Source of the DNA: a virus
Taxonomy: Duplodnaviria > Heunggongvirae > Uroviricota > Caudoviricetes
Length of the DNA stretch: 64,000 nucleotides
Reading direction: 5' to 3' (one strand)
IMG/VR virus record: IMGVR_UViG_3300001605_000025
Location: 1-64,000 of that record
The notes below the pieces were generated by a model. It worked only from the letters and a program-made list of their open reading frames with translations. It had not been told where the DNA came from and ran no database searches. Both the position numbers and the translations under genes were made by a program. Numbering within the stretch: position 1 is the first letter of the stretch; each line of letters begins with the position of its first letter. Positions 11,402 to 63,622 of the stretch are shown here, piece after piece.

Positions 11402-11463
11402 AGGTGTCGGTAACCTTATAACTATAACGCTTAGTTGTGTAACCATATAAGTCACCTTTCATT

Positions 11464-11470
11464 AAAAAAA
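11464..11470 (-). terminator. T7 run on the minus strand closing the C-free operon
   Basis: A7 on the + strand, about 45 nt after the stop of 11515..11706. The first C on the minus strand appears 13 nt later. Confidence 0.4.
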
Positions 11471-11514
11471 CTTTAAAATAACTCTCTATTCCACATACAC
11501 CTTATTACTTCTTA

Positions 11515-12107: not shown

Positions 12108-12127
12108 TATAATTTCACATAAAATAA

Positions 12128-12253
12128 TTAAATTCTCCTCTCACTATACATCATCTTACCCTTCTCATCAAACTCCAACTTCTTCTTAATATCAACAATC
12201 TCCCATTCATTCTTATCCTTATTCCAAACCTTATCCTTCACAATCTCAATCAT
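12128..12253 (-). CDS. C-free-mRNA protein a (41 aa, hand-called)
   Basis: Strong SD AGGAGG (12262-12267, minus strand) 8 nt upstream of ATG at 12253. Confidence 0.4.
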   Translation of the reverse strand: MIEIVKDKVWNKDKNEWEIVDIKKKLEFDEKGKMMYSERRI

Positions 12254-12478
12254 ACTCTTAACCTCCTATATATTTTCATAAACCTTAATAACATTAATAA
12301 AAATTTAACATATAACTATCTATATTCTATATATATGGTCACCGTACATCATTACCACTAGTTGCAATGTTTTGCACAAGCTAGCACCGGAAATACTTAA
12401 GGAGTAGCCCGTTAGTCCGTCTACTCGAACGTTCCGTTTAAATATAGGCACGTCCCAAAAACTTTACCGGAGATACCA

Positions 12479-21109: not shown

Positions 21110-21264
21110 CCTTGGAACATTAGCGTTCTTTACTGGGTCCCGACCCTCCGCTTTTTTCGAGTGGAACGATCCAGACGACTGGGCCGAACGACTAACGTTT
21201 GATAGTTTAGTAATGAACACTGCAATGCCAGAGCTAATAAATAAAATTATTGGAGGGGATTCCA

Positions 21265-24200: not shown

Positions 24201-27200
24201 TCGATCAACTGAGATACCAGCTGAATCGGGAACGAAGTATTTCAAGAATGCCCCAAAGAGTCAACGATTTGAAGACTCATTAAGTGGACTAGATCGTAAA
24301 GAGTATATGCAAGAATCTCAAGAAGGACTTGATGCGTTACATAATGAAATGAATAATATGACCTGGGAGCAGAGTGGTGAAGTAAATAAAGTAAAAGATG
24401 TACAGAAGAAACGTCAGGACTTAATTGATTTTGTTAAGAATGCTGGTGTAAAAATTGGTCTCGATATCGATGAAACGATTCAAAGTATGAACGTGTTCTC
24501 GATTATGTTTGGTGAAGAGAGCAAGGGATTCTTAGATCCTGAATATATGAATAAGAATTACGAACAGTGGTTTGAGAAGCTAAATAAACTAAGCCCGATA
24601 TATAGTGATATACAAAAGTTCCTCGGGAATAAATCCGTACTGATAACAGCTAGACCAAATCTAGTGGGACTTCACGATAAAGCACAACAAATCGGTAAGC
24701 AGTTCGGAGCTATAGCAACGTTCGCAGTTGAGAATACGAAAGAGAAGGCTAAACTGATTAAGGAACTAGGACTAGAAACGTATTACGATGAGGATACGTT
24801 ACAAGTTACCAAATTACAGAAGGAGCTTGATGCAATAGGTGCAACGACTAAAGTTATGCAGTCTGATTTTGGTGTTGCAAGAGAGAAAGGTGAACTACCA
24901 AATGTTAAGCGTATGGCTGAACAAGCTACAGCTAAACCGGTAACTAGTCCTGTTAAGACTGAATTACCAACAGCTCCGGCACAGAAACCAACTAGGAATA
25001 CGATAGCTGATACGTTAAAGGGAATGGTAATAAACGGTGGTGCGTTAGGTGGTGCTGGACTTGGATTCCTTGGTGGGATGACACTTGGACCGTTACCTGC
25101 AGTCTTTACAGGTTGGTTAGGTGCTAACATTGGGATGTGGGTTGACCGGGTAATCAAGAGTGGTCAACTGAAACAGTCGATTGCGAATCTGTTCAATAAG
25201 ACACCAGTTGTTGAGATTCCACCTACTGTTGTTGAGAAGACAACTCAGGTTGCTACTGGAATTAGTGACGCAATGGCTGGGATGTTAGAACGTTCGACGT
25301 TCCAGGCACAGAAAGTTATACGTGATAAGTTTGCATCTGTTGATAAGAACGGCGGAACGTTAACGATTGAAGAGGCTCCTGGTGCAGAACCTGCTTATCC
25401 TGGTGCAGCTGTTCCAAATGTTCCGTATGTGAATCCTGCTCTCGTTACTAGAGTTGAAGGAAGCGTAACGGGTATAGTTACAGCAATGACTACAGCATCG
25501 AGAGATATAGCGACCGCTGGTGGAAAGGTAGCTGGACAGATACAAGTTCTTGGGATGGAGGACTTCGGAAGTCTTGGTGGTAGTATAAAGGAAGCTGCAC
25601 AGAAAGGTGTTCAAGCTGTTCAGGAGAAAATGCCACGATTAGGATCGTCTGAACGTCCATATACCGGTGGTATTCGTTGGCAGAAGTTCTTAGACGGAAC
25701 GTTGTTTACGGATCAGAAAGCTTATGAGGAAGCAGTTGCAGCGAAGATTGATGAGTCAATTAAGTTCCAGGTTGACACGCTACGTGAGATGACTGGACTA
25801 TCGTTAGAAGCAGCAACAACGTTACGAAAGGATCTAGCTGCTATAATTAAGCCATCTCGTATGAAGATGTCTACGTTAATTGGTAGAGCTAAGGCGTATA
25901 TCGAGACTAAAGGGGCAACTGGAACTACTCCTGAGGCACTGAAGGAGTTTGCAACTGGTGAGGAGAAGATATTTGAACGATCTCATCCTGCAATGAAGAA
26001 TCTAGTTCCTGAGGACGTTACACCGTATCAGAGAATGTTTGGACAGGACTACACAATTAAACTGTCATTCCTAGATTATGATGAGTTCATGGCTGCAGCT
26101 GAGACTGTAAGACAGTTACCTGGATGGACTAGTACCGCGACTAAGGAATTCGAACGGTATGGTCAGCTCGGAACTAATGTTCTACATACGATGAAAGTTA
26201 CCGGACATATACCTGGTGGAAAGGAGATTGGGGGACGGATTGAACAGGTACGGACAGCTACCGAAACGTTAGCAACTGGACCATCGGCTATAACTGAAAG
26301 AAGTCAGTTAGAGATTGGAGATAAACGACTGAACTTACAGGAACGGATGAACTTAGCTGCGATGTATCTGGATAAACTGAACTGGAAGCTTGTACGCGGA
26401 CAGATGGCTCTATTAGGTATCGCATTCTCGATGATGGGTGCAATCAAGATGATCCAGAAGGCCTGGTCGACTGTAACAACTAGTATGTCGAATCTACCTG
26501 ATATATTTAAGAATATCGGTATGGCGATGGCATTCGGACCAGCTAACGCACAGGGATTCCTACGGACTATGCTTGGATCGAGTAACCAGATTGTTGGATC
26601 CTGGAAGAAGTTCACCGGTTATACAGCAACGTTAAACTCGATGCTTGCGTACTTTGCATTCCGTTTACTACAGGATACACGTGTAATCTTTGCGATCGAT
26701 CGATTGGTAGAGAAGATTATAGGACTACTGTCCGATCAGGCATTCTTAGATAAGATCTTCGGATTAATAGCTAACATTATCGATGCGTTACCTGGTGCAG
26801 TTGATTGGATCGTTAGTATGGTAACATGGTTAATGGGAATTTTAGAGACTCCAGGGATGAAGGATGTTCTAAAATGGGCTCTCGCTATGGGATTAGCAGC
26901 TCAGTTCCTGATGACCCCGTTAGCATTGTTAGGTGGTGCCGTACAGTTCTTGGGTTGGGCAGTTAGTGCACTAGCAGCTATACTAGCAACTGTACAAGCA
27001 GGATGGACTCTACTATTGGGACAGTTAATGGGAGCGCCAGCTGCATTAACTCAGGTTGTTGCCGGAATAGCTGGTGGAATCGTTCTTGGACTAGCTGCAG
27101 TCTGGTTACTCGTTAAGATGGGAATCATCGATGCAGTAGTTAAGATCGGTGAAGAGTTCCAGAAGAACTTCCCTGATATAATGGCTATACTGAGGATAGT

Positions 27201-42592: not shown

Positions 42593-43699
42593 CTACTTCA
42601 ACTTAACCAGATCACCGGCTAGTGTTTCTATCAGTCTATACTTAATCATATCAGCTAACTTCTCGTATACCTGTTTAGCATTCCAACCTACCATTGAACA
42701 TTCCTTAACGATATCACGTCTTGCACATGTTCCGCCGTGTAACGTAACGATGCGTCTAATCTGAACAAAGTCTAGGTTATTCGCTATGTCATCTCTCCAC
42801 ATCTTTTCATTTTGTAACAACGTTACTAGATCTGGATCCGTAACATCAAGATGCATAACAGGTTCGATCTCACGTTTCATCAGATGGTATCCAAGAATTA
42901 ACCGATTGAAGTAACTCGATTCAAAACTATATATATCCATCTCATGGTACAACTTCAGTATTGAGTCGTCAAATTCGATCTTGTTAATCGTATCCATCTG
43001 GTGTACTTGATCGTCGATGTTACTCCACAACACAGACATAGCTTGTGGATTCGGTCTTACATTTTGTGTCCGATGCATGATATCCATCAACGCTATATTA
43101 TCAGCATACGTAGGTAGGAATACCATAAAGATCAGTCTACGCCCTAACCCAGAACTAAGATCATAACTTCCAGGCTGAATTCCAGCCCACATCGATAGAT
43201 TCGTCTGATAGGCTATAGCTCCAGACGATAATCGTTTGAACACTCGTCCGTGATCTAACGCTGCTAACAGTTGTGTTTCCATCTGACTATTCATCTGATT
43301 CTTTAAGGCATCAGATATCGCTTTAAACTCATCAATTAACAACAGTCCATCTTTATTCAGTTCTGCAGCTCCAGGATTATTAATGCCTAAACCGTTAACC
43401 GACACGACAGTTCCAACAAAACCGGCTTCAGTCATTGACTGTTCACTAGCAATCTGGATCTCCGTCCCGTGAAAGATACCATGTGGATCAGCAGCCATAG
43501 TCTGGAGATAGTAAGTCTTCATAAACCCAGGTGGAGCTACAAATAGTAAGTGGCATCGCATATTCGGTAACTGCTTACCAGCATAGTATATCTCCCGTTT
43601 CTGGTTCATCAGATTGAACGCATGAACAGCATAGCTACAGGTAAAGTATGGAGCGTAGATCTCCCGTTTGTAAGCTTGCCGATCAGCAAGTTCACTCAT
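42593..43699 (-). CDS. MCM-like AAA+ ATPase (putative replicative helicase core)
   Basis: LLFVAPPGFMKT (Walker A-like), LLLIDEFKAISD (Walker B), QLLAALDHGRV...NLSMWAGIQP and GLGRRLIF are collinear with the MCM motifs (IDEFDKM, MEQQ, NAR..AAANP, SRFDL). Confidence 0.55.
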   Translation of the reverse strand: MSELADRQAYKREIYAPYFTCSYAVHAFNLMNQKREIYYAGKQLPNMRCHLLFVAPPGFMKTYYLQTMAADPHGIFHGTEIQIASEQSMTEAGFVGTVVSVNGLGINNPGAAELNKDGLLLIDEFKAISDALKNQMNSQMETQLLAALDHGRVFKRLSSGAIAYQTNLSMWAGIQPGSYDLSSGLGRRLIFMVFLPTYADNIALMDIMHRTQNVRPNPQAMSVLWSNIDDQVHQMDTINKIEFDDSILKLYHEMDIYSFESSYFNRLILGYHLMKREIEPVMHLDVTDPDLVTLLQNEKMWRDDIANNLDFVQIRRIVTLHGGTCARRDIVKECSMVGWNAKQVYEKLADMIKYRLIETLAGDLVKLK

Positions 43700-43722: not shown

Positions 43723-44355
43723 TTAGAATCTCTCCTTTAACGTTCTTCTTATCTGAATTGATTTCGCTGGACCAATTCCACGAACTCTCTGTAAATCTTT
43801 ATCTGGAACGTTTGCGATATTTGTTAAACAATTATGAGTCATCATTAATTGTGTCAGTTGTGCTGTTGAGATTCCAAGTAAACGTGCTGCCAGTATCGTG
43901 CGATCTCTTCTAACGGGAACATTATACTTTCCCTCATCAACTTTCTTCATGAACTTAACTAACGTGATCATACCTTCCCATTCGTTCTCTACCCATAACG
44001 GTTGAATACCGTACCGGCAGGCTATCGATGCGATCTCTCCGAAGAGAATATCTGGATCGATTGTTATCCCGATATCTCGCATATTCTTAACGTAAGGTGC
44101 TATAGCGCCTGTGATAAGCAGAATCTGGACTTTATCTTGGTGGACAGATATTCGTTCAATCTGATCGTGTATTCTACGATTAGGGCCTGTGATACTTCCA
44201 TACAAGTCTGCAATTGTCTTACGTTCAGCCAAACACCGTTCCGATTGGTAATCTCCTTCGTCTAGTTTAATCCTCCTGAACTTCATTTCCGGGAACTTCT
44301 TAGTTAAAAAGTCATAGTACTTTGGTGGCTCTCTTGTATCTACGTCGACTGGCAT
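43723..44355 (-). CDS. ERCC4/XPF-Mus81-Hef-type nuclease with C-terminal helix-hairpin-helix
   Basis: GDY...ERKTIADLYGSI is the ERCC4 signature GDxnERKx3D. C-terminal LQRVRGIGPAKSIQI is an HhH motif. Confidence 0.6.
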   Translation of the reverse strand: MPVDVDTREPPKYYDFLTKKFPEMKFRRIKLDEGDYQSERCLAERKTIADLYGSITGPNRRIHDQIERISVHQDKVQILLITGAIAPYVKNMRDIGITIDPDILFGEIASIACRYGIQPLWVENEWEGMITLVKFMKKVDEGKYNVPVRRDRTILAARLLGISTAQLTQLMMTHNCLTNIANVPDKDLQRVRGIGPAKSIQIRRTLKERF

Positions 44356-44595: not shown

Positions 44596-44811
44596 TTATC
44601 CCTCTCGGAAAACTTTTCGTTCTATCATCATTCGAATAGCTTCTAGTGCTGGAGATATCTCTACCCAGTCTCCAGAAAAATAGCTGGTTGGTAAGTTTGC
44701 TTTATCGCAATATGAATCAAACAGTTCAGACTTCTGCATCCATTCATGTTCTGTGTCCAGAAGCTCTAAAAATTGGACTAACGTTAGATTAGTTTCTTTC
44801 CCTTCCGACAT
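44596..44811 (-). CDS. hypothetical protein
   Basis: 71-aa ORF. Confidence 0.4.
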   Translation of the reverse strand: MSEGKETNLTLVQFLELLDTEHEWMQKSELFDSYCDKANLPTSYFSGDWVEISPALEAIRMMIERKVFREG

Positions 44812-45563
44812 ACCGACACCACGTCATGCTGATGAATTGATTCCTGATGTGTACAGACGACTACCCAATCTTCCATCCATCCATCGATCGTTGCACCGAT
44901 CACTCTTGAAGCATCCTCGACAAACAGATTCGTTCGGGCGGCTCGCTGACACCAATCTAGTTCGTCCGGTCTCTTCATCAACGGTATAGGAACAATGTCT
45001 ACCACTTCGATGATCCGTGCTACAATTGATGTCATTAGATCGTCCAGGTCCTCCTTCGGCGATAACAATCCAGTTACCTGTGCTAAAGCTCGCTGCATAT
45101 GAGGAACCCCTCCTTCTTGTTTCACCATTCTCATGGCACATGGGCACACACTCGCATACGGAACTTTCATAGTCAGATACCAATCTTCTTTATCGGGTAC
45201 ACGGACACCTTCTAACATACTATCTATAAAGATCAATTGTTCGTTCTCCATCTCATATGCTGCTGTCCAATTACATTCCCAGTAACTGTTAGTCGTTTCA
45301 TGTCCTTCAGCTAACGTTTCTAATAATTCTGAGTTCATATAAATCGGATCGTCCTCGTAATCTGTTAACGCATCAACTAATCGTGACATATGAACACCAG
45401 TCCGATCGATCAGATCAACATAAGCAGACTGACTTGTTAACGTTCGTCGTCCGCTAAAGTCTTGCATAAACTGTTTGAATCCTTTAATACCAACTTTCTC
45501 TAGTGGCATACCACCAGACGGACCTTCAGCATAGTCAGGTAACAATCGTACACATGAATCCAT
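44784..45563 (-). CDS. folE2: GTP cyclohydrolase I type 2 (FolE2/MptA family)
   Basis: AAGGAG SD before ATG at 45563 (track ORF trimmed). GVHMSRLV and SVCPCAM...PHMQRA match the FolE2 motifs (HMSR, CPC, HxQR). Confidence 0.7.
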   Translation of the reverse strand: MDSCVRLLPDYAEGPSGGMPLEKVGIKGFKQFMQDFSGRRTLTSQSAYVDLIDRTGVHMSRLVDALTDYEDDPIYMNSELLETLAEGHETTNSYWECNWTAAYEMENEQLIFIDSMLEGVRVPDKEDWYLTMKVPYASVCPCAMRMVKQEGGVPHMQRALAQVTGLLSPKEDLDDLMTSIVARIIEVVDIVPIPLMKRPDELDWCQRAARTNLFVEDASRVIGATIDGWMEDWVVVCTHQESIHQHDVVSVCRKGKKLI

Positions 45564-45564
45564 A

Positions 45565-45738
45565 CTACTGCTCCTTTGGGTTCTTCCAGTTACCAAATAC
45601 AGTCTCAAGAACAGCTGCTGAATATGGATGTGTATTACATGAATTATGAAGTAGCTGTTGGTCACAGCTTATAGCTCGTAACGCCTCTCCAATTGCATCT
45701 ACTTTCTGTTCAAGTCTTTTAAAGTCTTTAGTAGTCAT
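45565..45738 (-). CDS. small protein inside the deazaguanine cluster (57 aa, hand-called)
   Basis: TAATG overlap with the queE stop. Ends 2 nt before the folE2 start. Confidence 0.35.
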   Translation of the reverse strand: MTTKDFKRLEQKVDAIGEALRAISCDQQLLHNSCNTHPYSAAVLETVFGNWKNPKEQ

Positions 45739-46385
45739 TATCTCACCTTATACAGTACATGAAGTCTCGGGCTTACGGCTCCGTTAACTCCATATTCATC
45801 CATCATACGAATAATCTCACGAACCATTCTATTATGTTCCGTTATCATCGTATCGTCCTGGGGAGTCATCGGCATAAAGTACATTCTCACTTCAGAGTGT
45901 TCAGTTGCCCATTTCATCCACCATCTAATATTCTCATACCTAATAACTGGTTTAATAACTACATCTACTTCACAAATGTTAGTCCACAACGTTAATAGAT
46001 CGGTCAGTCCAGAAGTAGGTAGTTCACTATCTTTCGGACTAACAACTACCAGATCGAACGCAGCAACACCAAACGGTATCGTTCCATTCGTTTCGATAGC
46101 ATGTGTCATACCTAACGATTCAACTGAAGCGATCGTATCCTTTATCTCATCAACCTGGAGTCCAGGTTCTCCACCAGTCCAGACAACGTTCCTCACTCCT
46201 TTCTTATATGCTTTAGTAATCAGGCTTTTTAGTTCAGTCCGACTAACATTAATATACAGTGTTGCGTATTTCGTATCACAAAAAGGACAATGAAGATTAC
46301 AGCCCGATAGTCTTATAAACAACGACCGTACTCCAGCTTGTGGACCTTCACCCTGAATCGATATAAACGTTTCGTTTAGTCTCAT
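45738..46385 (-). CDS. queE: 7-carboxy-7-deazaguanine synthase (radical SAM QueE)
   Basis: FISIQGEGPQAGVRSLFIRLSGCNLHCPFCDTKY carries the CX3CX2C cluster motif and the QueE N-terminal signature. Confidence 0.85.
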   Translation of the reverse strand: MRLNETFISIQGEGPQAGVRSLFIRLSGCNLHCPFCDTKYATLYINVSRTELKSLITKAYKKGVRNVVWTGGEPGLQVDEIKDTIASVESLGMTHAIETNGTIPFGVAAFDLVVVSPKDSELPTSGLTDLLTLWTNICEVDVVIKPVIRYENIRWWMKWATEHSEVRMYFMPMTPQDDTMITEHNRMVREIIRMMDEYGVNGAVSPRLHVLYKVR

Positions 46386-46816
46386 TGTAACCCTCTCTCA
46401 GGAGTCCACGTGACGGTAGCCTTACTAACATCATTCTCCCATACCGTCACACTAACCATTGTTAGTGGTCCAAGTTTCCAGTTGTACACATCCATCACAC
46501 TATTACAAAGTAACGTTGCAATATTTTCGCATGTTGGATTCTCTCTCGTTGGATATACTAGTTGATTACACGATCTAAGTATCTGAACTAACGGATCAGA
46601 TTCTTTCAGTATCACTTTATGATCCATACCATCCGTTAGTCTTTTAAGTACCGTAAAGTTCTCGAGGTACCCAACAGAGTTAACTTTGTCACCCTGTAAG
46701 ACAAAATCTACTTTCCAATTATGCCCATGTAAGAATCCACATTTCGAATCATCACCATACTGTCTATGTGCAGCTTCAAAATCGACAGACGTCTGTATCG
46801 TAACCATGATGTTCAC
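46382..46816 (-). CDS. queD: 6-carboxytetrahydropterin synthase (QueD/PTPS family)
   Basis: FEAAHRQYGDDSKCGFLHGHNWKV is the PTPS His/Cys motif. 144 aa. 4-nt overlap with queE. Confidence 0.85.
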   Translation of the reverse strand: MNIMVTIQTSVDFEAAHRQYGDDSKCGFLHGHNWKVDFVLQGDKVNSVGYLENFTVLKRLTDGMDHKVILKESDPLVQILRSCNQLVYPTRENPTCENIATLLCNSVMDVYNWKLGPLTMVSVTVWENDVSKATVTWTPERGLQ

Positions 46817-47608: not shown

Positions 47609-47827
47609 CTAACTCTCATCCTCCAGTTCCTTAGTTAAATCATCTCTCATATCATTAAGTTCAGCTCTTATATCAACCAACTGACTGTCTAGATCAGAAA
47701 TATTTAGTACTACTGTCTCAATATCAAGCTCGTCGGTACTACATAGCTTATGTACAGCATCAAGTTGGTTAATTGCTTCATTCATCATATACCTAATACT
47801 AGCTAAGTACTCAGGTATGTCGTTCAC
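47609..47827 (-). CDS. acidic coiled-coil protein
   Basis: 72-aa ORF. Confidence 0.4.
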   Translation of the reverse strand: MNDIPEYLASIRYMMNEAINQLDAVHKLCSTDELDIETVVLNISDLDSQLVDIRAELNDMRDDLTKELEDES

Positions 47828-48231
47828 TTTATCTCCCTCGCGATTACAACTCGATTCAAGTGGTCAGCTGTCTGAATATAAATGTTCGTTCTTGGAGTCC
47901 ATTTAATAGTAACACGAACATTCCGTTCACGAATAACAGTTAGAACAGTTGTACAGAGTTCAGCTAACCGTTTATTCGTAGTCTGGTACTGTTTGTTCAA
48001 CTGTTTAACAACAAGTTCACTATCCGAATACAGTGTTATGTCATCGTATCCCTCTCCTATACAATAGTTTAATGCGTTCAACAGTCCAGTATACTCAGCA
48101 ACGTTATTCGTTACACCTGTAAGTATATCAGTTCGTTGATACACTACTATATTGTTCTTCACTATTAAAAAGGAGGCTGCACCTATCCCGTTGCTATTCT
48201 TACCGGATCCATCACTGTAAGCTACAATCAT
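47824..48231 (-). CDS. rnhA: ribonuclease HI
   Basis: DEDD pattern: AYSDGSG, NNVAEYTGL, LYSDSELV and QTADHLN. 135 aa. Confidence 0.8.
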   Translation of the reverse strand: MIVAYSDGSGKNSNGIGAASFLIVKNNIVVYQRTDILTGVTNNVAEYTGLLNALNYCIGEGYDDITLYSDSELVVKQLNKQYQTTNKRLAELCTTVLTVIRERNVRVTIKWTPRTNIYIQTADHLNRVVIAREIK

Positions 48232-49030: not shown

Positions 49031-50950
49031 TTATGAACATCCAGACCACCCGCATGTCATACACGTTCCGCTTCTACAACCCGAACCGAAACTAAGTACC
49101 GTCCCACATTGTGGACACTTATTCGTTACAATTTCAGATTCTGTAAACCAGAATGCATTCATTCGTTTCGCAAGAATATCCGGACAACTCTTTCCAGCAG
49201 AGTTTGGATTCTTCATTGCGGTAGTACACTCAACTTTCGATAGCGTCGATATGATCCGTTTAATCGTTGTCTTCTCATCACCATAGAGTCTCGGGTCATG
49301 TATATACTTGGAAATAACCTTCCCCATTCCTTCCATGTTAGCCTTACATCCGCCTTGCGTGAGAACATAAGCTTCGTATGGGTGATCGTCGGCGATGTTG
49401 TTATTGGTAGTAACGTGTATCTCGCCACACCCTGTGGGGAAGTCCAACGTTCTACCGTATCGTTCAACTCTGTCTCCTTTAGAGCTCGGTTGGCCTCTTC
49501 CTGGAATCGGTCCAGTAGGTCGAACAGATGTAAGTACCTGTTTATCTTTTGAACCATCTCGATACACCGTTATCCCTTTGCATTTCAGTTTCCAAGCTAA
49601 ATGTATCGCATCCTCAATATCCTGTACTGTAGCACTTGATGATAGATTAATCGTTTTTGATACAGCGTTATCAACATGGTTCTGCCAGGCAGCCATATGT
49701 TTCAACTGCCACTCTACAGATATATGCTTAGCTGTATCTTCTAGTAATCCATGTTGTCTTGCGAGATCGGTCAGTGGATGTTCGAGTGTTACAATTCCAG
49801 CTTCTGACTCTCGTGTGTACGTCCAGTCAAATACTGGTTCGATACCTGACGAACAATCTGCAAGGAAGGATAATGTTCCAGTTGGAGCAATCGTCATAAC
49901 TGTTTCGTTGTTATAGGTCCGTCCTGGAACTTCTCTCGTTGCAACATCATAGTACCTAGATCCAATCTTATCGATCAACTGAATCGCTTCTGTTGATTGA
50001 TAGCTGATACCCATTTTAATCAGTAAGTCAGCCCAACCCATAACACCGGATCCAATCTTTCTAGACAGTAATGTAGCCTCTCGTATCTCTGGTATCGGGA
50101 ACGTATTCAAATCAATAACATCGTTTAACGCTCGTACCGACAATCTTACCGTATCGTCAAGCATCCCGTAATCAAACGTCTCTCCTTCCGGTATCAGTTT
50201 ACTTAGATTGATAGACGCTAAATTGCACGACTCATACGGTCGTAACGGCTGTTCGCCACAAGGGTTCGTACAATCGATAACACCTCTCTCAGGAAACCGA
50301 TTCGTCTCGTTGAGTCTATCCAAAAATACGACACCGGGGTCTCCCGTTCTCCAGGCATGCTCTGCAATAGTGTGAACCAGTCCGTTATCGCTTTGCATAT
50401 CTGAGTCCTTGATCCCGACGCTAATATTGAAATGTGATAGTCCGGATCCACTATCTTTACAGTGTATAAACTCTTGGATGTCTGGATGATCAGCGTTAAG
50501 TATCCCCATATTGGCACCCTCGCGTTTACCTCCTTGGGATACCACACCGGCTGACTCGTTAAGCAATTCCATGACTTTAACAGGACCACATGCTTTCCCT
50601 TTAGTTGATTGTATAAGTGAGCCACGTGGTCTAAGTCTAGAGAAGTTGAAACCGGTTCCACCAAAGTACTTATGCACACGGGCGGCGTGCCAAACCGTTC
50701 TATATATTCCATCCAGTGAATCTTCCACTGGTAAGACGTAACACGCTGATAATCCTCCAGCTCCCGGTACGCCTGCATTAACAAGCGTCGGAGTGTTTGG
50801 CAACCAGATTCCGTGAGACATAGCATTGAGCAATGTTTCCGTGTACTTGCGATCCTCTCGTCCGATAAACTTTGCAACTCTCTCATATACATCACGTTCT
50901 GTTCTCTCTCCAGGTTGTAAATAACGATCCTTTAGTAGTTTCTCTTTCAT
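49031..50950 (-). CDS. nrdJ: ribonucleotide reductase, class II (adenosylcobalamin-dependent)
   Basis: Catalytic loop CTNPCGEQPL...CNLASINL and C-terminal Cys-rich tail CPQCG...CRSGTCMTCGWSGCS, typical of class II enzymes. 639 aa. Confidence 0.9.
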   Translation of the reverse strand: MKEKLLKDRYLQPGERTERDVYERVAKFIGREDRKYTETLLNAMSHGIWLPNTPTLVNAGVPGAGGLSACYVLPVEDSLDGIYRTVWHAARVHKYFGGTGFNFSRLRPRGSLIQSTKGKACGPVKVMELLNESAGVVSQGGKREGANMGILNADHPDIQEFIHCKDSGSGLSHFNISVGIKDSDMQSDNGLVHTIAEHAWRTGDPGVVFLDRLNETNRFPERGVIDCTNPCGEQPLRPYESCNLASINLSKLIPEGETFDYGMLDDTVRLSVRALNDVIDLNTFPIPEIREATLLSRKIGSGVMGWADLLIKMGISYQSTEAIQLIDKIGSRYYDVATREVPGRTYNNETVMTIAPTGTLSFLADCSSGIEPVFDWTYTRESEAGIVTLEHPLTDLARQHGLLEDTAKHISVEWQLKHMAAWQNHVDNAVSKTINLSSSATVQDIEDAIHLAWKLKCKGITVYRDGSKDKQVLTSVRPTGPIPGRGQPSSKGDRVERYGRTLDFPTGCGEIHVTTNNNIADDHPYEAYVLTQGGCKANMEGMGKVISKYIHDPRLYGDEKTTIKRIISTLSKVECTTAMKNPNSAGKSCPDILAKRMNAFWFTESEIVTNKCPQCGTVLSFGSGCRSGTCMTCGWSGCS

Positions 50951-51603
50951 AGTCTCATCACGTTACCGATGTAATCTTCGTCACGCTTTAAGTACAGATG
51001 TGGACAGAAACAAATATGTGTATACGTTCCAACCGGTAGTCCTACAGCTAACGATATATGTTTCTGTAACTCCGTTAGTCCATACATATTTGGACCTAGT
51101 CCCAGTGTCATATCCTCCGACCGGAATACAACTTTCATATTTAAACGTCCTTCTCTTACATCACAATGTATCAACTGTAAGCACGGAACGTCTTCACGAG
51201 TCGTATCCAATTTCGGATTCCATGTTATCGCTTGAGCTCGTCTAGTAGATGGTGACCCAATAAGTTTCTGTTCAATATACGTTATCTGGTTGATCCCAAA
51301 GTGATGCGTTAATCGATCGTGGTAATCGTAGACAAAGTCAGCAGACGTTCCCGCAATCAGATCGTTAGCATACTGATCCATATACTTCTGACTGAACGGT
51401 AGTGTGGGAGGTTTAATAAATCGTGGTTCCACAAACGGAGTTCTAATAAACAATGCTAGTTCTTTAGCCTCAATAGTATCCTGTTTGTTCTCTCCAGGAT
51501 ATACAATCGGGCATTCAGTCTCATCTTTATAACAATGGTTCATGATATACCGTATAACGATCTCATGACCTTTCGCTAAGTTAGGTGCTTGTAACAACTT
51601 CAT
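50947..51603 (-). CDS. thymidylate synthase family enzyme (ThyA-like; short form; substrate/product not resolvable)
   Basis: VPCLQLIHCDVREGRLNMKVVFRSEDMTLGLGPNMYGL is collinear with the ThyA core PCH..FQFYV..GKL..QLYQRS.D..LG.PFN. Confidence 0.8.
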   Translation of the reverse strand: MKLLQAPNLAKGHEIVIRYIMNHCYKDETECPIVYPGENKQDTIEAKELALFIRTPFVEPRFIKPPTLPFSQKYMDQYANDLIAGTSADFVYDYHDRLTHHFGINQITYIEQKLIGSPSTRRAQAITWNPKLDTTREDVPCLQLIHCDVREGRLNMKVVFRSEDMTLGLGPNMYGLTELQKHISLAVGLPVGTYTHICFCPHLYLKRDEDYIGNVMRL

Positions 51604-53260: not shown

Positions 53261-53962
53261 TCATATGTCTAACCTGTTTGATATAATCCATCCACAACCT
53301 ATTCCAGCAGCATTACCACTAATCGTTAGCGGCATATCTTGACCGATACCAATTATACACTCCTGTAGTCTACCGATTATCGGCTGTATCTGTTTCAAAT
53401 AATCAGTAGCTACAAGTACTGTAACTTTAGGTGCTTCCTCCTTTCGTATCGTAATCTCATCACGTTTATACGTAACGTCAACAAGTTCAGCTAACTTATC
53501 TTCAAAAACGATACCATCTGGTCCATACGTTATTTTCATAGCAGCACTACTGTCTTTCTTATCATAAGCGTCAGTAATTGTTTGTATCCCAAACTTCAGA
53601 TCGTTAGGTGTCATTGTAAAAACATTAGTCCATGGAATCTTCGGACTCGGTCCAGGTTTTACACCAGTCAATCTTTTCAGTTTATAGTTTGCACGTCCTG
53701 AATGAACAACTACCGGATTATCCAGTTCAATTGTAACGTCCCCAACCATCGTAGATGGAAAGTCATCAAACCTAAGTGCTAGATTAGTTGCATCAGTAGA
53801 CGTACAAGCAACTTTACATTCTACGAATCCTACCAACGCAATATCAGTCGCAGACATGAATAGATGATCCAGTTGAACGTTGATGTTACTTTCAGGAACA
53901 AACGATCTCATAATCGCTAACGCTAATGTTAATCGTTCTCCAGTTATCGTAATACTAGTCAT
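53261..53962 (-). CDS. PCNA-like sliding clamp
   Basis: 233 aa. The C-terminal region VLVATDYLKQIQPII...IGIGQDMPLTISGN matches the PCNA pattern (YL...k...v.l..g.d.Pl.l). Sits next to the replication genes. Confidence 0.6.
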   Translation of the reverse strand: MTSITITGERLTLALAIMRSFVPESNINVQLDHLFMSATDIALVGFVECKVACTSTDATNLALRFDDFPSTMVGDVTIELDNPVVVHSGRANYKLKRLTGVKPGPSPKIPWTNVFTMTPNDLKFGIQTITDAYDKKDSSAAMKITYGPDGIVFEDKLAELVDVTYKRDEITIRKEEAPKVTVLVATDYLKQIQPIIGRLQECIIGIGQDMPLTISGNAAGIGCGWIISNRLDI

Positions 53963-53975
53963 GGGTACTCTCCAG

Positions 53976-54113
53976 TCAGTTTACCTTTATAATTTCGTCT
54001 CCGTTTGATAATTTCTGTCCTACCTTTGGTTTAATTTTCATTACCGTTGTACTCAGTTTACCTTCTGGACTTCTAACAGATACAATCCATTTCGTCTGAG
54101 GTTTCCGTGTCAT
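53976..54113 (-). CDS. small basic protein (45 aa, hand-called)
   Basis: ATGA overlap with the dcd stop. Confidence 0.3.
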   Translation of the reverse strand: MTRKPQTKWIVSVRSPEGKLSTTVMKIKPKVGQKLSNGDEIIKVN

Positions 54114-54670
54114 GGTGTATTCTCGAAATAACGAGATCCCGTGGCTCCAGTCTGATCATGATATTTTGCGTCATGTTTCGAATAATACGGAACATTAGCG
54201 TGGTGTGTCTTATAAAAAACTAATTGAGCGATAGGCATCCCAGCTGTCAGAATGATAGAGCGCATATTCTCGTTCGTCATCTCTAAGGTAATTGTACCCC
54301 GGAATCCGCAATCCACCCATCCGCCAGTTTGATGTACAGTAATCCCTAATCTCGCTAACGAGCTTTTGCCTTCGATCGTCGCACATACTTCATCACTTAA
54401 CTCAATCCGTTCCATCGTTTCAGCTAGTAAGAATGAATTCTTCTCTAATGTTATCCGTTCAGCTGTAAAATGATGTAGACCAAGTTCTACTGATTCTTTA
54501 TCATATGGATCAATCGGATAGTTAAATGACTGGATATCATACACAGCAAAGTTATTACCTAGTCTAACATCAATACTATTCGACTGAATACCATTCTTAT
54601 ATAGTGGCAGTATCTTTATATCTCCACTTTCCAATAATCCGTTCAGTTGCCAATCAACCATTACGCTCAT
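54110..54670 (-). CDS. dcd: dCTP deaminase (dUTPase-fold)
   Basis: SSLARLGITVHQTGGWVDCGFRGTITLEMTN is the Dcd/Dut trimeric-fold signature. 186 aa. Confidence 0.85.
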   Translation of the reverse strand: MSVMVDWQLNGLLESGDIKILPLYKNGIQSNSIDVRLGNNFAVYDIQSFNYPIDPYDKESVELGLHHFTAERITLEKNSFLLAETMERIELSDEVCATIEGKSSLARLGITVHQTGGWVDCGFRGTITLEMTNENMRSIILTAGMPIAQLVFYKTHHANVPYYSKHDAKYHDQTGATGSRYFENTP

Positions 54671-55161: not shown

Positions 55162-55835
55162 CCTTTACCACCATGCATCATATCCCATAATTGACCACGA
55201 CCTGCAGGATACCAATGTTCTGGATAGAATGCCTTCAGTCCTAGACGTGATAACTCATCTCTTTTATACATATCTTTATGAACGTTCAGTCTCTCAATAA
55301 CAAAATTAACAGATCGTTCAATACCTTCATCAGTTTCGTACATATGAATTCCATAGTCCCAGAACTTGGTAATATATTCGATACGATCCATTCGTTTCTC
55401 ATGTGTCAGATATAGTGCACGTTCCTCCTTAAGTATCGTTAAACGTTTAGACTTATCGGTAGTACTCCATTCAGTATACCGTTCTATCAGTCTCCACATT
55501 AGATATCCGAATCGTTCATAGTACATATCATCATTTCGATGAAGAACCACTAGAAATGCTCCTAACCGGTGTATTGCAAGTCTATTCAACCACGAACATC
55601 CTTTTAACAATTTGGGTATCTCACGAACATACTCATCAAATAGTACCATGGTTAACTTCATACTGTCAGTTATAAACTCACCACTATCAACTCGTAACCA
55701 CTCAGGTCTTAATATCAATCCTTTCAGTAGATTAATATTATTACCGTTCATGATCACATCAAGAATCAGTGGTTTGTCTTTCGCATGGAACTCGGCTCCA
55801 TGTCCATCATCATACCATAAACTAGGAACTCTCAT
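55158..55835 (-). CDS. hypothetical protein
   Basis: 225-aa ORF with 4-nt overlap coupling. Confidence 0.45.
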   Translation of the reverse strand: MRVPSLWYDDGHGAEFHAKDKPLILDVIMNGNNINLLKGLILRPEWLRVDSGEFITDSMKLTMVLFDEYVREIPKLLKGCSWLNRLAIHRLGAFLVVLHRNDDMYYERFGYLMWRLIERYTEWSTTDKSKRLTILKEERALYLTHEKRMDRIEYITKFWDYGIHMYETDEGIERSVNFVIERLNVHKDMYKRDELSRLGLKAFYPEHWYPAGRGQLWDMMHGGKG

Positions 55836-56208
55836 TGAACACCTGTGTCTGTACTCTTTCTAGTGGAATTGTACCAATATCTTTAACACCATATTCAACC
55901 GACGTAGCTGTAAGTGCCTGTCGGTTACCATACGAAAAATATACATAGTATAGTCCGATAGAGGATCCTTTAGGAAGTGTCACACTGAATGATCCATCAC
56001 CGGTTGTACTAGTATTGGCGACATCTTTAGAACTTTCATTTTTCACGGTAACTACTATAGCTGCTTGTGGAAGACCATCTACTGTGGCCTTACCTTGAAT
56101 TTTAATATAGTCAGGAGTCGGAGTTGGTGTAGGTGTTGGTACAATAACCAATACTAGGAGTATAGCCACGAGTATCATGACTGTCCATACTATCTGTTTC
56201 AGATCCAT
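55822..56208 (-). CDS. membrane-anchored protein with (TP)4 linker and carboxypeptidase-regulatory-like beta-sandwich
   Basis: Trimmed to Met45, 15 nt after the polB stop. TM VWTVMILVAILLVLVIV, then PTPTPTPTP, then GKATVDGLPQAAIVVTVKN...GDGSFSVTLPKGS. Confidence 0.5.
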   Translation of the reverse strand: MDLKQIVWTVMILVAILLVLVIVPTPTPTPTPDYIKIQGKATVDGLPQAAIVVTVKNESSKDVANTSTTGDGSFSVTLPKGSSIGLYYVYFSYGNRQALTATSVEYGVKDIGTIPLERVQTQVFNESS

Positions 56209-56222
56209 TTGATCACATCCAA

Positions 56223-58508
56223 TTAGAACCATTTTGTTAGTCCGGTTTGTCCATTGATTTCTGTATCCCAATTCAATCCGATAGATTCCATTAAAGACTC
56301 CATCTTCATCTGAACTGTCTTCAGTCCCATTTTTTGCCAATCAACCGTAACACGAGATAATAGATCAGCGTCAGGATAATCAGTATCGATACATATAACG
56401 TCAACGGGACTAATGCAATATAATAACTTAGGCTTCTTGTCTGCCCTGAACTTAATTCCAAGAAGTTTCCGTCCATTCTCTTTACCTCGAATCCAAGGGC
56501 TTGAACCTCTCTCTTCGTGTGAACGATTCTTTGTAATACCCTTAGGTATCGCTACAAGTTGACAACCAACTCTACCGTTCAATATATTATAGTAAGTTTC
56601 TCTTATTAAACGTACTGCTGTTTCGGGATCATTGTTAACGAGAACGTTCTCGAAGAATTGTTTCATCAACGTTCTCGATATCTCGGCAGTATCCGATCGT
56701 TTGACTTCAAGCCCAGTATAGTTAACCTTTGGTGGTAGTTTTGTAAGGTCTTGTCCATCCTTCCAAATAAGAACACCGGCATAACGTTTCTTCGCAGCGA
56801 CGTCCTTGTCCGACCGTTTCTTAAACATAAGTGTGCGGTATATCTTCTCCAGTTTAAGCGTAGGAGCAAGATGGTCGGCGATATTGACGGATCGTGCCCA
56901 ATCCAAGAGATAAGTATTGAGTTCCGTCTGGATGCGCAAACCTTCTTCTGGTGTCTTAACTGGCTTGATAAACGTACTGTCCGTATCCCCATAGACGATA
57001 GTATAACCCAACTCTCTGATGCGTTTATGTAGTTCTCTGGAGATCTCGCGACCCTTTCCAGTAATAAACGCTGCGATTTCGGGTTTATGGAGTCTGGCTC
57101 CAGAAAAAGCCAAATATCCGTAGAACGCGTTGATGACATATTTCAAACTCTGTTCACTAGTTAACATAGCCTTTGAGGCTTTACCTTCCATTTTCAATCG
57201 TCTCATCACATCTCTAGCTTCCATCAATTCAACGATGATCTTAGGTATCATCTTAAGTCTGTCCGGACTCAGATTAAACGCTAAGATAATTGATGGGTAT
57301 AGAGCTTTCAAATCAGTAGTACCAACGTTCTCGTGAACACCAAACTCCGGTTGTAAGACTAACGCTCCTTCATAATCAACCGATACCACATCATGTCGCT
57401 TAGTCGGTAGAGGCATAACCTCACCAGCTAATACGACCTTATGCATGATATAGTATTCGATAATCTTTGCACGTTGATAGCAATCGGTAATCTTGATACC
57501 GACCATCCTACGGAGAGACTCGTAGAACTCTATAAGTCCAGTTTCAGCATCGATCTTCTGTAACGCAATAACATCATTCTTTCCGTACTGTATAAGTTCC
57601 TTCCAACGCTTCTCTTGGATCAAGGTACGGATATGATCTCCGTGGTCTTCGTACGTGAACTGTGCCTCGTGCCGTGCCACAAACTTTAAGTCGTAAGTTG
57701 GTAAACCACCCTTTGGCTTGCTCCAGTCCTTGTAGAATTTCAGCATATCGAAGAGTTCCCGTCCTTGCCATCTCTCCTCGTCTGGGTACGTCGTAGGCCA
57801 CCTCGATAACTTCGAAACATTGACCTTGAGCATCCTTGCTCTTCTTATGATATACGGAATATCGAACTTTTCGCTGTACCAACCGCACATCAGATCCGGA
57901 TCTGTTCTCCAAACGAACTCTACAAATGCTGTGAGTAATTCCTGTTCCGTATCGAACGACTCTTGGTCTGGGTCGATCAACTCTCCGTTCAGTGTAAACA
58001 CTTTGCACTCTGATGTGTAAGAATCTAGGACCTGTATCTGACAGATTGGCCATTTGCATTCCTCCGGTAGTGGCATTTCATCAACTGGACTATCAACTTC
58101 AATATCGAAAAAGCAGCATCTCGGTTTCAACATCGGAACGTCTATTGGGTGTCCCAGTTCATCGAACCCATACATGATTCCGTGATCGATTAGGTAACGC
58201 ATATCGTAAACGATATCCGCTTCGCACGTAAACGGAAAGAGATCACGTACCTTCGGAACGTCACTCGGTAATCTTGTGAAACATCGTGTAACGTTTCGCC
58301 CAAAAGCATCAATGTAACCAGGTTCCGTTCTAGTGATAAAAGGAGTTGACGGAATGTACGACCCTCCTCCGTAAAAGTAAGGTTCTTGATTTCCAAACCC
58401 CATAACTTTGACTTCTTCCGGTTTATCATAATTCCGACCTATCAATACCGTTATTGGTTTCCCGTTATGCATTGTCCAGAACGATTGTTCCCAAACGTAC
58501 CGACTCAT
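56223..58508 (-). CDS. polB: family B DNA polymerase
   Basis: Exo I FFDIEV, pol motif A DLKALYPSII, motif B KYVINAFYGYLAF, motif C YGDTDS. 761 aa. Confidence 0.92.
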   Translation of the reverse strand: MSRYVWEQSFWTMHNGKPITVLIGRNYDKPEEVKVMGFGNQEPYFYGGGSYIPSTPFITRTEPGYIDAFGRNVTRCFTRLPSDVPKVRDLFPFTCEADIVYDMRYLIDHGIMYGFDELGHPIDVPMLKPRCCFFDIEVDSPVDEMPLPEECKWPICQIQVLDSYTSECKVFTLNGELIDPDQESFDTEQELLTAFVEFVWRTDPDLMCGWYSEKFDIPYIIRRARMLKVNVSKLSRWPTTYPDEERWQGRELFDMLKFYKDWSKPKGGLPTYDLKFVARHEAQFTYEDHGDHIRTLIQEKRWKELIQYGKNDVIALQKIDAETGLIEFYESLRRMVGIKITDCYQRAKIIEYYIMHKVVLAGEVMPLPTKRHDVVSVDYEGALVLQPEFGVHENVGTTDLKALYPSIILAFNLSPDRLKMIPKIIVELMEARDVMRRLKMEGKASKAMLTSEQSLKYVINAFYGYLAFSGARLHKPEIAAFITGKGREISRELHKRIRELGYTIVYGDTDSTFIKPVKTPEEGLRIQTELNTYLLDWARSVNIADHLAPTLKLEKIYRTLMFKKRSDKDVAAKKRYAGVLIWKDGQDLTKLPPKVNYTGLEVKRSDTAEISRTLMKQFFENVLVNNDPETAVRLIRETYYNILNGRVGCQLVAIPKGITKNRSHEERGSSPWIRGKENGRKLLGIKFRADKKPKLLYCISPVDVICIDTDYPDADLLSRVTVDWQKMGLKTVQMKMESLMESIGLNWDTEINGQTGLTKWF

Positions 58509-59657: not shown

Positions 59658-60494
59658 TTAGTCCACCATTGATCGCTTTGGTAGTTCAGACTCAGCAAAG
59701 ATCATCTGACCGTCAGCTTGTGTAAACGCATCCAGGAACTGAATATTCTTCACGATATCGTACATCATCACCTTATCATCAAGTCCAGAGTTATCAGATC
59801 CATCCCAACTAATCGGTAACCGTGATGTAACTTTCCGTCCGTCCATCTTAACGTTCCGTGTTATCTGCCACTGCTGTTTCAAATCGACTTCGTTAATAGC
59901 AGCACTAACACACAAGCTACTATCAATACTATTAAACCGACCAGCCATATTATATATTTCAAGCAGGTTATCCCATCCAAACGCGTGGACGTAACGATCT
60001 TGAGGAAGGTCCAAAAACTTATGCAAGCTACCACGATCGAAACCAAGACGGTAACTAAAGATACTGATTCCGAGAGCGACATCTCTATACTTCCGTATCA
60101 TATTCCACTGTTCTAGCATCTCGTTAGGTCTTTCGTGAAGAATACACATCAGATTAATATTATCATCCAGAAGACCTTCAGACTGGTACTCCTCCAGAAT
60201 ATCAATAGTCATCCGACCAGTTTCAATTCCATCCGTCAGTTTCTCAGGTCCAACAACGAACACCTGATCGGCATCAAGTTGTCTAGCCATGACCATCATA
60301 TGTTCAAAATCAGTAGCCTTTACATCTTCATATAATGCATTATCTAGAACTACGGTATCCCATTTCCGTCCGAGATAGAAGTCTCGATAGGCTTTAATCT
60401 TCCAGTACTGTGATAGAATAAAAACATTAGTTGTTCCTGCAACATCTAACGTCTCCAGGTATCCAATCGGAACGATCGGCATATAGTTAACCAT
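59658..60494 (-). CDS. TGT-fold / DpdA-like DNA guanine transglycosylase candidate
   Basis: 278 aa. VVLDNALYE and YVHAFGWDNLLEIYNMAGRFNSIDSS resemble the TGT-family patterns (hhDSGgf; hLFG.G.P.....G.D.FDS). The genome also carries folE2-queE-queD. Not verified by search. Confidence 0.45.
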   Translation of the reverse strand: MVNYMPIVPIGYLETLDVAGTTNVFILSQYWKIKAYRDFYLGRKWDTVVLDNALYEDVKATDFEHMMVMARQLDADQVFVVGPEKLTDGIETGRMTIDILEEYQSEGLLDDNINLMCILHERPNEMLEQWNMIRKYRDVALGISIFSYRLGFDRGSLHKFLDLPQDRYVHAFGWDNLLEIYNMAGRFNSIDSSLCVSAAINEVDLKQQWQITRNVKMDGRKVTSRLPISWDGSDNSGLDDKVMMYDIVKNIQFLDAFTQADGQMIFAESELPKRSMVD

Positions 60495-61972: not shown

Positions 61973-63496
61973 TTACCCCGTTAAAAAAGTATAGTGTTCA
62001 ATATCCTTTAACATTGTTCCACGATCAGCTTCAAACATTGGAACAAACTTGAATACTGCATCGCTGTATCCACTAATCGGACATGTTAACGGATCCGACT
62101 CTGGAATCTTAAGTAGTCCGTAAGACGATACATCGAAACTATACAGTCTACAGTTCGGATTGACTTTCATCCTGTACTGTTTAAGCACATCCTGAACGTC
62201 ACTACCGTACCCGTAGCTATTATAGCACTGCATATCGGAGAACAAGAAGATCCGATCGTAGAACTGGTTCTTCGATAATATATCAGTTATTGCTAACCAA
62301 GCATTAGTAGAATGACCAACGTCAGTAGTAGCAACTTTCTGCATATTAGTAAGAATGCTGTCACGTTTAGATAACGGTACAGTCTTGTAAGTTTGTCCGA
62401 ACGCACCAACTGTTGCCTCCTCACATACATGTAACGAGATTGCACTGAACAGTGATGCGATATCAATGCACTGAACAGTACTCTTATCGGAAACGTCTGA
62501 ATGCATCGATCCACTGTTATCAGACGCAATAAATGTCTTGCCTGATATCCGTGGAACATTCTCAACGGATATAGTCATTGCATCGTTTATCGCATCCAGA
62601 ACTTTTGTAGGTCCACCTACCTCACGGTAAGCACTGAAGAACCTATAGGGGAACTGTTTACTTTTCCGTACAGCAACAGGATCCGTTAACCGCTTCAGAT
62701 AAAGATTCATATCAACATCATGCTTCTGGAAGTTTCTTAAGTTCCTCAGTAGCGCCATGTAGCCCATCTTTGGAATTACTTCCTCCCATGTCCTCTTAGA
62801 AGCACCGTTCTTCGAAATGTGAGTCTCCCAAGTAAACGGAGTCTCCAATGTTCCGTTGATAATCTTATCATACAGTACCTGTTGTTCTGCAGATTTCGGT
62901 TTCGGATGTGTCAGGAAGATAACATCTTTCAGTGTTACCTTTCCTTCACGATTATACTTCGCCAGCTGGTATTCATCAAACTGGTTTAACGCATCACTAA
63001 TACCCTTCTTTAGCATTCCAGGTATCGGAGCGAATGTCTTCGGTACATACTTCTTACCTTGAGCTTCAAGTGAGGCTTTCCGTTTCGCTTCTACTTCTGG
63101 GTTAATAGGTGACGACGCTAAAAAGTATGCTATCGCTTCTGCGGGTTCGTCAGCTCTCCGAAGAATACTTGAAACATATTTATACGCACCTTCCAGTTTA
63201 GTTCCAGCCTTAGCATACTCAACTAATAGAAACACAGGAACAGTTCTCAAGTACATTTCGTTCCGTGCATATGCCGCCAACTTCGGTACGTACTCAGGAT
63301 CGTTTACACTGATCCGTTTAACAAGATTCAGTATAGCATCGCTAGTCTGTTTCTCCTTCGTATAGTATGAGTCTCCAGACATCATAAACGACATCGTGTG
63401 GAGCATCAATGCTAACTTGTCAGAAGGCTTATACGCTTCCGCCCCCTCATAGTTAACGGGTTTCGTTCCGTTTGGTTTTGCATTAAATCTCGCCAT
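61973..63496 (-). CDS. rsr: Ro60-related TROVE domain protein with C-terminal vWA/MIDAS
   Basis: NYEGAEAY, GDSYYTKE, AAYARNEMYLRTVPVFLL, YMALLRNLRN, KQFPYRFFSAY, MIDAS FIASDNSGSM and DRIFLFSDMQ are collinear by eye with human Ro60 (LTALLRNLGKM, RIHPFHIL, LLAVDVSASM, DVFIVFTDNE). Confidence 0.85.
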   Translation of the reverse strand: MARFNAKPNGTKPVNYEGAEAYKPSDKLALMLHTMSFMMSGDSYYTKEKQTSDAILNLVKRISVNDPEYVPKLAAYARNEMYLRTVPVFLLVEYAKAGTKLEGAYKYVSSILRRADEPAEAIAYFLASSPINPEVEAKRKASLEAQGKKYVPKTFAPIPGMLKKGISDALNQFDEYQLAKYNREGKVTLKDVIFLTHPKPKSAEQQVLYDKIINGTLETPFTWETHISKNGASKRTWEEVIPKMGYMALLRNLRNFQKHDVDMNLYLKRLTDPVAVRKSKQFPYRFFSAYREVGGPTKVLDAINDAMTISVENVPRISGKTFIASDNSGSMHSDVSDKSTVQCIDIASLFSAISLHVCEEATVGAFGQTYKTVPLSKRDSILTNMQKVATTDVGHSTNAWLAITDILSKNQFYDRIFLFSDMQCYNSYGYGSDVQDVLKQYRMKVNPNCRLYSFDVSSYGLLKIPESDPLTCPISGYSDAVFKFVPMFEADRGTMLKDIEHYTFLTG

Positions 63497-63538: not shown

Positions 63539-63619
63539 GGTAACGGGTGGGAGTTGAACCCACACTGACTATCATCGTACTTGTCAGCTCCACCATGTAC
63601 GACAGGGCAATTCCGTTAC
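63539..63619 (-). ncRNA. tRNA-like element A (no canonical anticodon loop)
   Basis: Perfect 7-bp acceptor stem GTAACGG/CCGTTAC and canonical T arm GTGGG-TTCAACT-CCCAC. The middle folds instead as CTGAC-13 nt-GTCAG or TCGTAC-16 nt-GTACGA. There are 4 nt, not 2, between the acceptor and a D-like stem. Confidence 0.45.
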
Positions 63620-63622
63620 CAA

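Follow-up and report, generated by a model that had tools for sequence, protein, structure and literature searches.

An uncultured tailed virus with an archaeal-looking replication module encodes a probable QueC-independent, phiST-type pathway for 7-deazaguanine in DNA

The stretch of DNA considered here (the window) comprises positions 1 to 64,000 of IMG/VR virus record IMGVR_UViG_3300001605_000025, assigned to the Caudoviricetes, and carries on its minus strand adjacent genes for FolE2, QueE and QueD, which together lead from GTP to 7-carboxy-7-deazaguanine (CDG). Our analysis indicates that these genes probably (we estimate a probability of about 0.6) form the first half of a pathway, encoded by the virus and independent of QueC, that would modify DNA with 7-deazaguanine in the manner of Cellulophaga phage phiST. 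That phage, which encodes FolE, QueD, QueE, DpdL and DpdA3 without QueC, carries 2'-deoxy-7-deazaguanine (dDG) in place of every G in its DNA (Cui, Hutinet et al., NAR 2023, PMC10516641). A deazaguanine pathway that seemingly ends at QueE is a paradox, which this published mechanism would resolve. The system described here is a divergent addition to the known phiST type, set apart by its FolE2, its split gene arrangement and a probably archaeal virus backbone.

FolE2, a 57-amino-acid (aa) open reading frame (ORF), QueE and QueD lie contiguously on the minus strand between positions 44784 and 46816, and the chemistry of the three enzyme families, from GTP to CDG, is established. FolE2 (44784..45563) is a GTP cyclohydrolase IB, which forms dihydroneopterin triphosphate from GTP, and matches PF02649 (4e-32). 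QueD (46382..46816), the 6-carboxytetrahydropterin (CPH4) synthase, matches PF01242 (2e-21), TIGR03367 (QueD, 6.6e-17) and PHROG 2389 (7e-25), and its CxxxHGH motif is intact, reading KCGFLHGH. QueE (45738..46385), the radical S-adenosylmethionine 7-carboxy-7-deazaguanine synthase that converts CPH4 to CDG, matches PF04055 (1.8e-13) and PHROG 2076 ("QueE-like", 3.3e-33); its five top NCBIfam matches are all QueE models (6.6e-23 to 6e-16), and the CxxxCxxC cluster motif is present (C-NLH-C-PF-C). These family and motif searches bear out an earlier note on the window, made from the letters alone, in the identities and coordinates of all three genes and in the 57-aa ORF wedged among them, and the gene identifications agree with its statement that the encoded FolE2-QueE-QueD pathway stops at CDG. 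No similarity to the DNA of known phages was found for the window between 42.5 and 50 kb.

The ORF listed for FolE2 extends from 44784 to 45665 and scores 112 bits against PF02649 (GCHY-1/FolE2), for which the Pfam gathering cut-off is 25. Among NCBIfam models, FolE2 (1.2e-29, 103.7 bits) is preferred over MptA (5.6e-12, 45.4 bits); since both scores fall under the equivalog cut-offs, the protein is a divergent member of the FolE2 family. As listed, the ORF would encode 293 aa from a GTG at 45665 and run about 100 nt into the 57-aa ORF. Because its 62 homologues, all of which contain PF02649, measure 256 to 266 aa each, the true start is most likely the ATG at 45563, which would give a protein of 259 aa beginning one base past the stop of the 57-aa ORF.

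The 57-aa ORF itself (45565..45738, minus strand) has no assigned function, and searches of Pfam, NCBIfam and PHROG returned no match. A homologue with 50-54% identity occurs in one relative (L011), where it is placed elsewhere, next to an AAA_24 gene; the ORF is probably outside the pathway. As described below, sister viruses carry QueC in exactly this slot. That the ORF is a remnant of QueC was ruled out, as it resembles neither QueC nor the small ORFs that flank QueC in two relatives (L111 and L112).

Exact-protein look-ups recovered the same virus as 74,870-bp contigs from three sequencing runs, in differing rotations. The window and two fetched loci were joined into a closed circle of 74,840 bp with an overlap of 7,756 nt and zero mismatches, and we infer that the extra 30 bp of the contigs are the k-mer overlap of a circular assembly. 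The window falls short of this full circular genome by 10,840 bp.

The viral genome is without QueC (PF06508), the SGGxDS PP-loop ATPase with a C-terminal Zn-binding Cys cluster. In six-frame translations, the SGGxDS motif occurred in no real ORF of the window, as the earlier note had claimed, nor in any real ORF of the full 74,840-bp circle. All minus-strand genes were scanned with Pfam, which revealed no QueC, QueF or tRNA-guanine transglycosylase (TGT), and an ArcS-like protein was not found among the genes scanned. When QueC of a sister virus was used as a tblastn query, the 74.8-kb genome gave no match (best E = 0.05); because 340 phage records yield QueC or Gat-QueC with the same query, this negative result is meaningful. 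The earlier note had proposed that QueC might lie outside the window and that the complete genome be searched for it. With the circle closed and searched by motif and by tblastn, that explanation is refuted for the viral genome.

A gene encoding a 127-aa paralogue of QueD lies about 2.9-3.3 kb past base 64000, outside the window (L001:6214-6597:+), on the same strand as the que genes. Its product contains SFTAFHHYPGAPDDVSYLREPHRHKFYW, in which the signature LxxxHRHxF (here L-REP-HRH-K-F) stands in place of the QueD motif CxxxHGH, and the metal-binding His/Glu residues of the T-fold are kept. In an alignment with the phiST DpdL CGPG_00067, homologues from Acidovorax phage ACP17 and Xanthomonas phage BUDD, and three relatives, the signature is invariant. 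The protein is 25% identical to phiST DpdL; profile comparison of this lineage by hhalign gave 96.9% (E = 1.9e-10) against phiST DpdL and 0.5% against the window's own QueD, and profile matches in the PDB were to QueD only and weak. Searches with tblastn retrieved the 127-aa ACP17 ORF (1e-9) and the BUDD homologue (8e-15), both of which directly adjoin QueE and lie near TGT-like or unnamed genes. The probable identity of the ACP17 homologue with the published dpdL is drawn from position, motif and the text naming CGPG_00067.

DpdL was described as a paralogue of QueD in which CxxxHGH is changed to LxxxHRHxF and was proposed to be a CDG decarboxylase; it is found in phages that have DpdA, FolE, QueD and QueE without QueC, and the family marks QueC-less pathways with dDG as end product (PMC10516641). 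The earlier note had also considered that an unrecognized enzyme within the window might replace QueC. A candidate enzyme does exist, as a member of a described family encoded beyond the window end; it would divert CDG, by the proposed decarboxylation, instead of performing the chemistry of QueC. DpdL-like genes are very common in uncultured viruses, with at least 557 loci in IMG/VR. At the best 80 of these (L023-L102, ±10 kb), QueE was present in 47 and FolE in 56. A homologue of the unnamed 342-aa ORF immediately upstream of the ACP17 DpdL-like gene occurs at 52 of these 80 loci.

The putative base-inserting enzyme is encoded inside the window, at 59658..60494 on the minus strand, two genes upstream of the gene for the family B DNA polymerase (PolB). 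Sequence searches of Pfam, PHROG, NCBIfam and the PDB with this 278-aa protein gave nothing useful, and tblastn against phages returned chance-level matches only, so that its identification as a DpdA3-like DNA-guanine transglycosylase comes from profile and structure comparisons. It has 37 homologues, and its AlphaFold model (mean predicted local distance difference test score, 91.5) adopts the TIM-barrel fold of the TGT/DpdA superfamily. By fold it is closest to the DNA enzyme DpdA, and its leading viral matches were DpdA proteins of phages. When predicted viral structures were searched with Foldseek, the third match was a 259-aa phiST protein (E = 1e-8, TM 0.64/0.68), equal in length to DpdA3 CGPG_00065, followed by several phage "queuine tRNA-ribosyltransferases." The hhalign comparison with phiST DpdA3 aligns the invariant motifs LDN, HAFGxD (HxxG) and xDSS, and a weak Pfam TGT match appears in 7 of 32 family members. 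Neither the window protein nor any of 32 homologues matched the DpdA4 family PF20314 (DUF6610) at E ≤ 1. On these grounds the protein is predicted to insert the deazaguanine base into viral DNA, and it may represent a separate DpdA subfamily. This gene had been overlooked in the first reading of the window.

Pterin pathways also draw on FolE2 and QueD, and the genes could in principle leave DNA untouched, serving as auxiliary metabolic genes for queuosine or archaeosine in host tRNA or for pterin, or supporting a Cap10-like modification of protein by the TGT-like enzyme. We regard this as highly improbable. The fold and viral matches just described favor a DNA enzyme, and its gene belongs to the replication module, beside PolB. 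DpdA-family proteins are, moreover, the signature of 7-deazaguanine in viral DNA (PMC10516641). For the protein-modifying variant, no Cap9/QueC-like partner was found by tblastn.

In the phiST-type pathway that we favor, FolE2, QueD and QueE would convert GTP to CDG, a step assigned by homology in this analysis, and the DpdL-type paralogue would decarboxylate CDG to 7-deazaguanine (DG), following the published proposal. The DpdA3-like enzyme would then exchange guanine for DG in viral DNA after replication; both the substrate and the extent of this exchange are predictions. The outcome would be dDG-containing DNA resistant to host restriction, with replacement that may be near complete, as in DpdA3 phages. 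Because the gene set without QueC is the same as that of phiST, dDG is most likely the end product here.

The encoded pathway in the window ends at CDG, and the earlier note had raised the deoxynucleoside of CDG (dCDG) as the final base. This would require that the DpdA3-like enzyme insert CDG directly, with the DpdL-like protein inactive or doing something else. Precedents exist: dCDG occurs naturally at low level in the Sulfolobus virus STSV-2, the authors of the phiST study regard insertion of CDG by DpdA3 as possible, and in an Escherichia coli queC mutant CDG was inserted by a DpdA2 (PMC10516641). STSV-2 infects archaea, has a DpdA homologue and carries a base at the level of CDG, and the present virus, with its likely archaeal host, would resemble it in these respects. 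STSV-2 differs in that it has only DpdA and ArcS2, without FolE, QueD or QueE, and this sole natural case reaches a trace 149 dCDG per 10^6 nucleotides; phiST, with the same gene set as here, has 0 dCDG against 302,000 dDG per 10^6 nucleotides (PMC10516641). A DpdL-type gene, which marks dDG pathways, is also conserved in this genome and its relatives. The dCDG idea is not the best reading, and we consider it quite unlikely.

The resemblance to phiST extends beyond gene content. Apart from the type of cyclohydrolase, the enzyme set is the same, QueC is absent from both, and both carry the DpdL signature LxxxHRHxF. The small TIM-barrel transglycosylase (259-278 aa), putatively of DpdA3 type here, finds in phiST its closest match in sequence and structure of all named viruses. 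Its gene belongs to the replication module in each case, here two genes from PolB and in phiST between the CDG and polymerase genes. Differences are also evident. The cyclohydrolase is type IB (FolE2) here and type IA (FolE) in phiST, no MazG-like gene is adjacent here, and the backbone is archaeal-looking, in contrast to that of a Bacteroidota phage.

Sister viruses place the missing gene precisely. In four of them (L021, L022, L111 and L112), a syntenic module reads QueD-QueE-(small ORF)-QueC-FolE2-Hef/ERCC4-MCM-like, with FolE2 42-50% identical to that of the window and QueC in the gap between QueE and FolE2 that the 57-aa ORF occupies here. Because these viruses keep QueC between QueE and FolE2, the comparison suggests that the present lineage lost QueC in the course of evolution, with DpdL acquired or retained, and that no sequencing gap accounts for the absence. 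Another relative (L020) is likewise without QueC between QueE and FolE2, and DpdL-like and DpdA3-like genes co-occur in three more (L011, L014 and L016). Homologues of FolE2 and of the DpdA3-like protein were found on contigs whose lengths agree (74,747 bp and 73,974 bp).

One QueC-bearing contig of 22 kb (L019/L022) was read end to end and contains QueC and a DpdA3-like gene, the product of which is 34% identical to that of the window, and no DpdL. The apparent alternation of QueC and DpdL rests on this contig, the single QueC-bearing one that could be read whole. In two of the four QueC-bearing sister viruses, QueC is split by inteins. Intein domains (Hint, Intein_splicing and LAGLIDADG) occur in both QueC and the MCM-like ATPase of sister viruses (L021, 8265-10004 and 11442-13760; L112, 1196-3004); the MCM-like gene of the window and the genes adjacent to it are intein-free.

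These comparisons bear on the possibility that the host supplies QueC. The virus would then boost CDG, the host would make preQ0, and the viral transglycosylase would insert preQ0 or a derivative of it. Most Euryarchaeota make preQ0 for archaeosine, the replication genes of this virus are archaeal-looking, and the sister viruses pair QueC with a related DpdA3-like protein. Viruses that carry DpdA alone and use host preQ0 are known as well (PMC8651126). Under this explanation, however, the loss of QueC while the three upstream genes were kept stays unexplained, as does the presence of a DpdL-type gene here and its absence from the QueC-bearing contig. QueC was found at 0 of the 80 best DpdL-like loci. 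The apparent alternation of QueC and DpdL argues against simple dependence on host QueC, which we judge unlikely.

Several points weigh against the phiST-type reading that we prefer. The virus is known from metagenome assemblies, and its base is predicted from genes alone. Its genes are scattered over three places, with the que, DpdA3-like and DpdL-like genes separated by 13 kb and 6.4 kb, in contrast to the one cluster of phiST. The proteins are divergent: DpdL is only a quarter identical, as noted above, and DpdA3 is a profile-level match, which was distant in hhalign (83.5%, E = 8e-6, single sequence, 218 columns), and the 278-aa protein of the window has itself no Pfam match. Its family showed no similarity by hhalign to the unnamed 342-aa ORF of ACP17 or to the BUDD protein annotated "queuine tRNA-ribosyltransferase," which suggests that the window protein is specifically phiST-like. 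An archaeal host would own QueC for archaeosine, and it is possible that it could complete CDG to preQ0. The search for QueC in the structural module (18.5-42 kb, plus strand) consisted of the PP-loop motif and tblastn. Finally, the decarboxylase activity of DpdL was never reconstituted, and heterologous expression gave no detected dDG (PMC10516641).

That same divergence from the phage prototypes, in both the DpdL-like and the DpdA3-like protein, together with the status of DpdL activity as an unproven proposal (PMC10516641), leaves room for a different chemistry. The DpdL-type protein of this lineage might act on CDG other than by decarboxylation and yield a novel DNA base. Such a derivative seems very unlikely to us, as every DpdL signature and metal-binding residue is kept and no further candidate modification enzyme was seen adjoining either the DpdL-like or the DpdA3-like gene.

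Comparison with Druskaviridae is informative in another respect. These haloarchaeal viruses with preQ0/G+ pathways, exemplified by HVTV-1 (FolE, QueD, QueE, QueC, QueF and DpdA4), are archaeal-type tailed viruses with a family B polymerase, and the present virus shares with them this character, its own synthesis of a deazaguanine precursor and a DpdA-family protein. QueC is retained in the Druskaviridae, whose DpdA is DpdA4 (DUF6610), whereas the present genome has no QueC and no DUF6610 match and carries a DpdL-type gene. DpdA4 has been called specific to archaeal viruses, and DpdA3 and DpdL have so far come from bacteriophages (PMC10516641). The DpdL/DpdA3-type route would accordingly extend to a lineage whose replication module is of archaeal type and whose cyclohydrolase is FolE2 and, if the host is archaeal, to a new host domain. 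For other que clusters that lack QueC, the practical consequence is to look for DpdL and a DpdA instead of QueC. The apparent exchange of QueC for DpdL in otherwise syntenic sister modules also offers a natural test of the function of DpdL and of the choice of substrate by DpdA3-like enzymes.

The assignment of the host draws on the gene complement around the que genes. PolB is nearest to that of haloarchaeal tailed viruses (25-28% identity over its full length), and TerL and capsid protein genes mark a tailed virus. A short, methanogen-type thymidylate synthase (ThyA) is encoded at 50947-51603 on the minus strand (TIGR03283, 6.6e-48). A Hef-like ERCC4 protein that matches archaeal Hef lies at 43723-44355, an MCM-like ATPase at 42593-43699, an RNase HI that matches archaeal models at 47824-48231, and a protein with a weak match to the sliding clamp PCNA at 53261-53962. 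Because PolB, ThyA, Hef, RNase HI and the MCM-like and PCNA-like proteins form an archaeal-looking set, the host is likely archaeal and possibly a methanogen. A scan of genome collections gave one match, a 13-kb contig binned to a metagenome-assembled genome of Planctomycetales, which is uninformative for the host, and ARAGORN found no tRNA genes. Nucleotide metabolism is further represented on the minus strand by a B12-dependent ribonucleotide reductase of class II, which bears a TSCPD domain at its C terminus and a Cys-rich tail (49031-50950), and by a dCTP deaminase (54110-54670); both count, with ThyA, among the genes that point to an archaeal host.

The earlier note had also connected the pathway with a G-free template strand at 11,452-12,336. 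The block is real: the plus strand contains no G over 885 nt (11452-12336; A 298, C 255, T 331), the runner-up G-free run measures 66 nt, and the probability of an 885-nt block is about 1e-75. It is situated at the start of a leftward operon, over its first genes, and because the plus strand is without G, the mRNAs are without C and the small proteins they encode lack His, Pro, Gln, Thr and Ala. The link to the pathway found no support. In close relatives (L104-L107, TerL 70-89% identical), its place is taken by just 100-200 nt of G-poor sequence, so the full block is peculiar to this genome, and G is still present on its opposite strand. 7-Deazaguanine is not known to hinder templating, and it pairs normally. 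We give little credence to a broader scheme in which an archaeal, probably methanogen-infecting virus would replace most or all of its G by 7-deazaguanine through a new DpdA subfamily and DpdL, with the G-free block as an adaptation that would let the genes transcribed first after genome entry be read from a strand free of the modified base; taken as a whole, this is very unlikely.

Other features of the window lie apart from the pathway. A TROVE/Ro60-like protein with a von Willebrand factor A domain is encoded at 61973-63496 on the minus strand (PF05731, 2e-30), preceded by roughly 1.1 kb in which no genes were called, a stretch that runs on into L001 8900-10000. Three elements were matched there on the same strand: one like tRNA-Sec at 63539-63620, one like mascRNA at 63624-63683, and a tRNA-like element at 63953-64000 that is cut by the window end (Rfam tRNA, 30.9-34.5 bits). 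The pairing of Ro60 with the tRNA-like Y RNA YrlA is known from bacteria, and the combination of TROVE and tRNA-like elements resembles it. At 55822-56340 on the minus strand, an ORF with a hydrophobic segment, a (TP)5 linker and a carboxypeptidase-regulatory-like domain (PF13620, weak, 2e-4) shares about 118 nt with the PolB gene; a protein of membrane or surface type is odd within a replication module. Within the structural module, a single plus-strand ORF (21250-28389) encodes 2,379 aa and is presumed to specify a giant tape-measure or tail-fiber protein.

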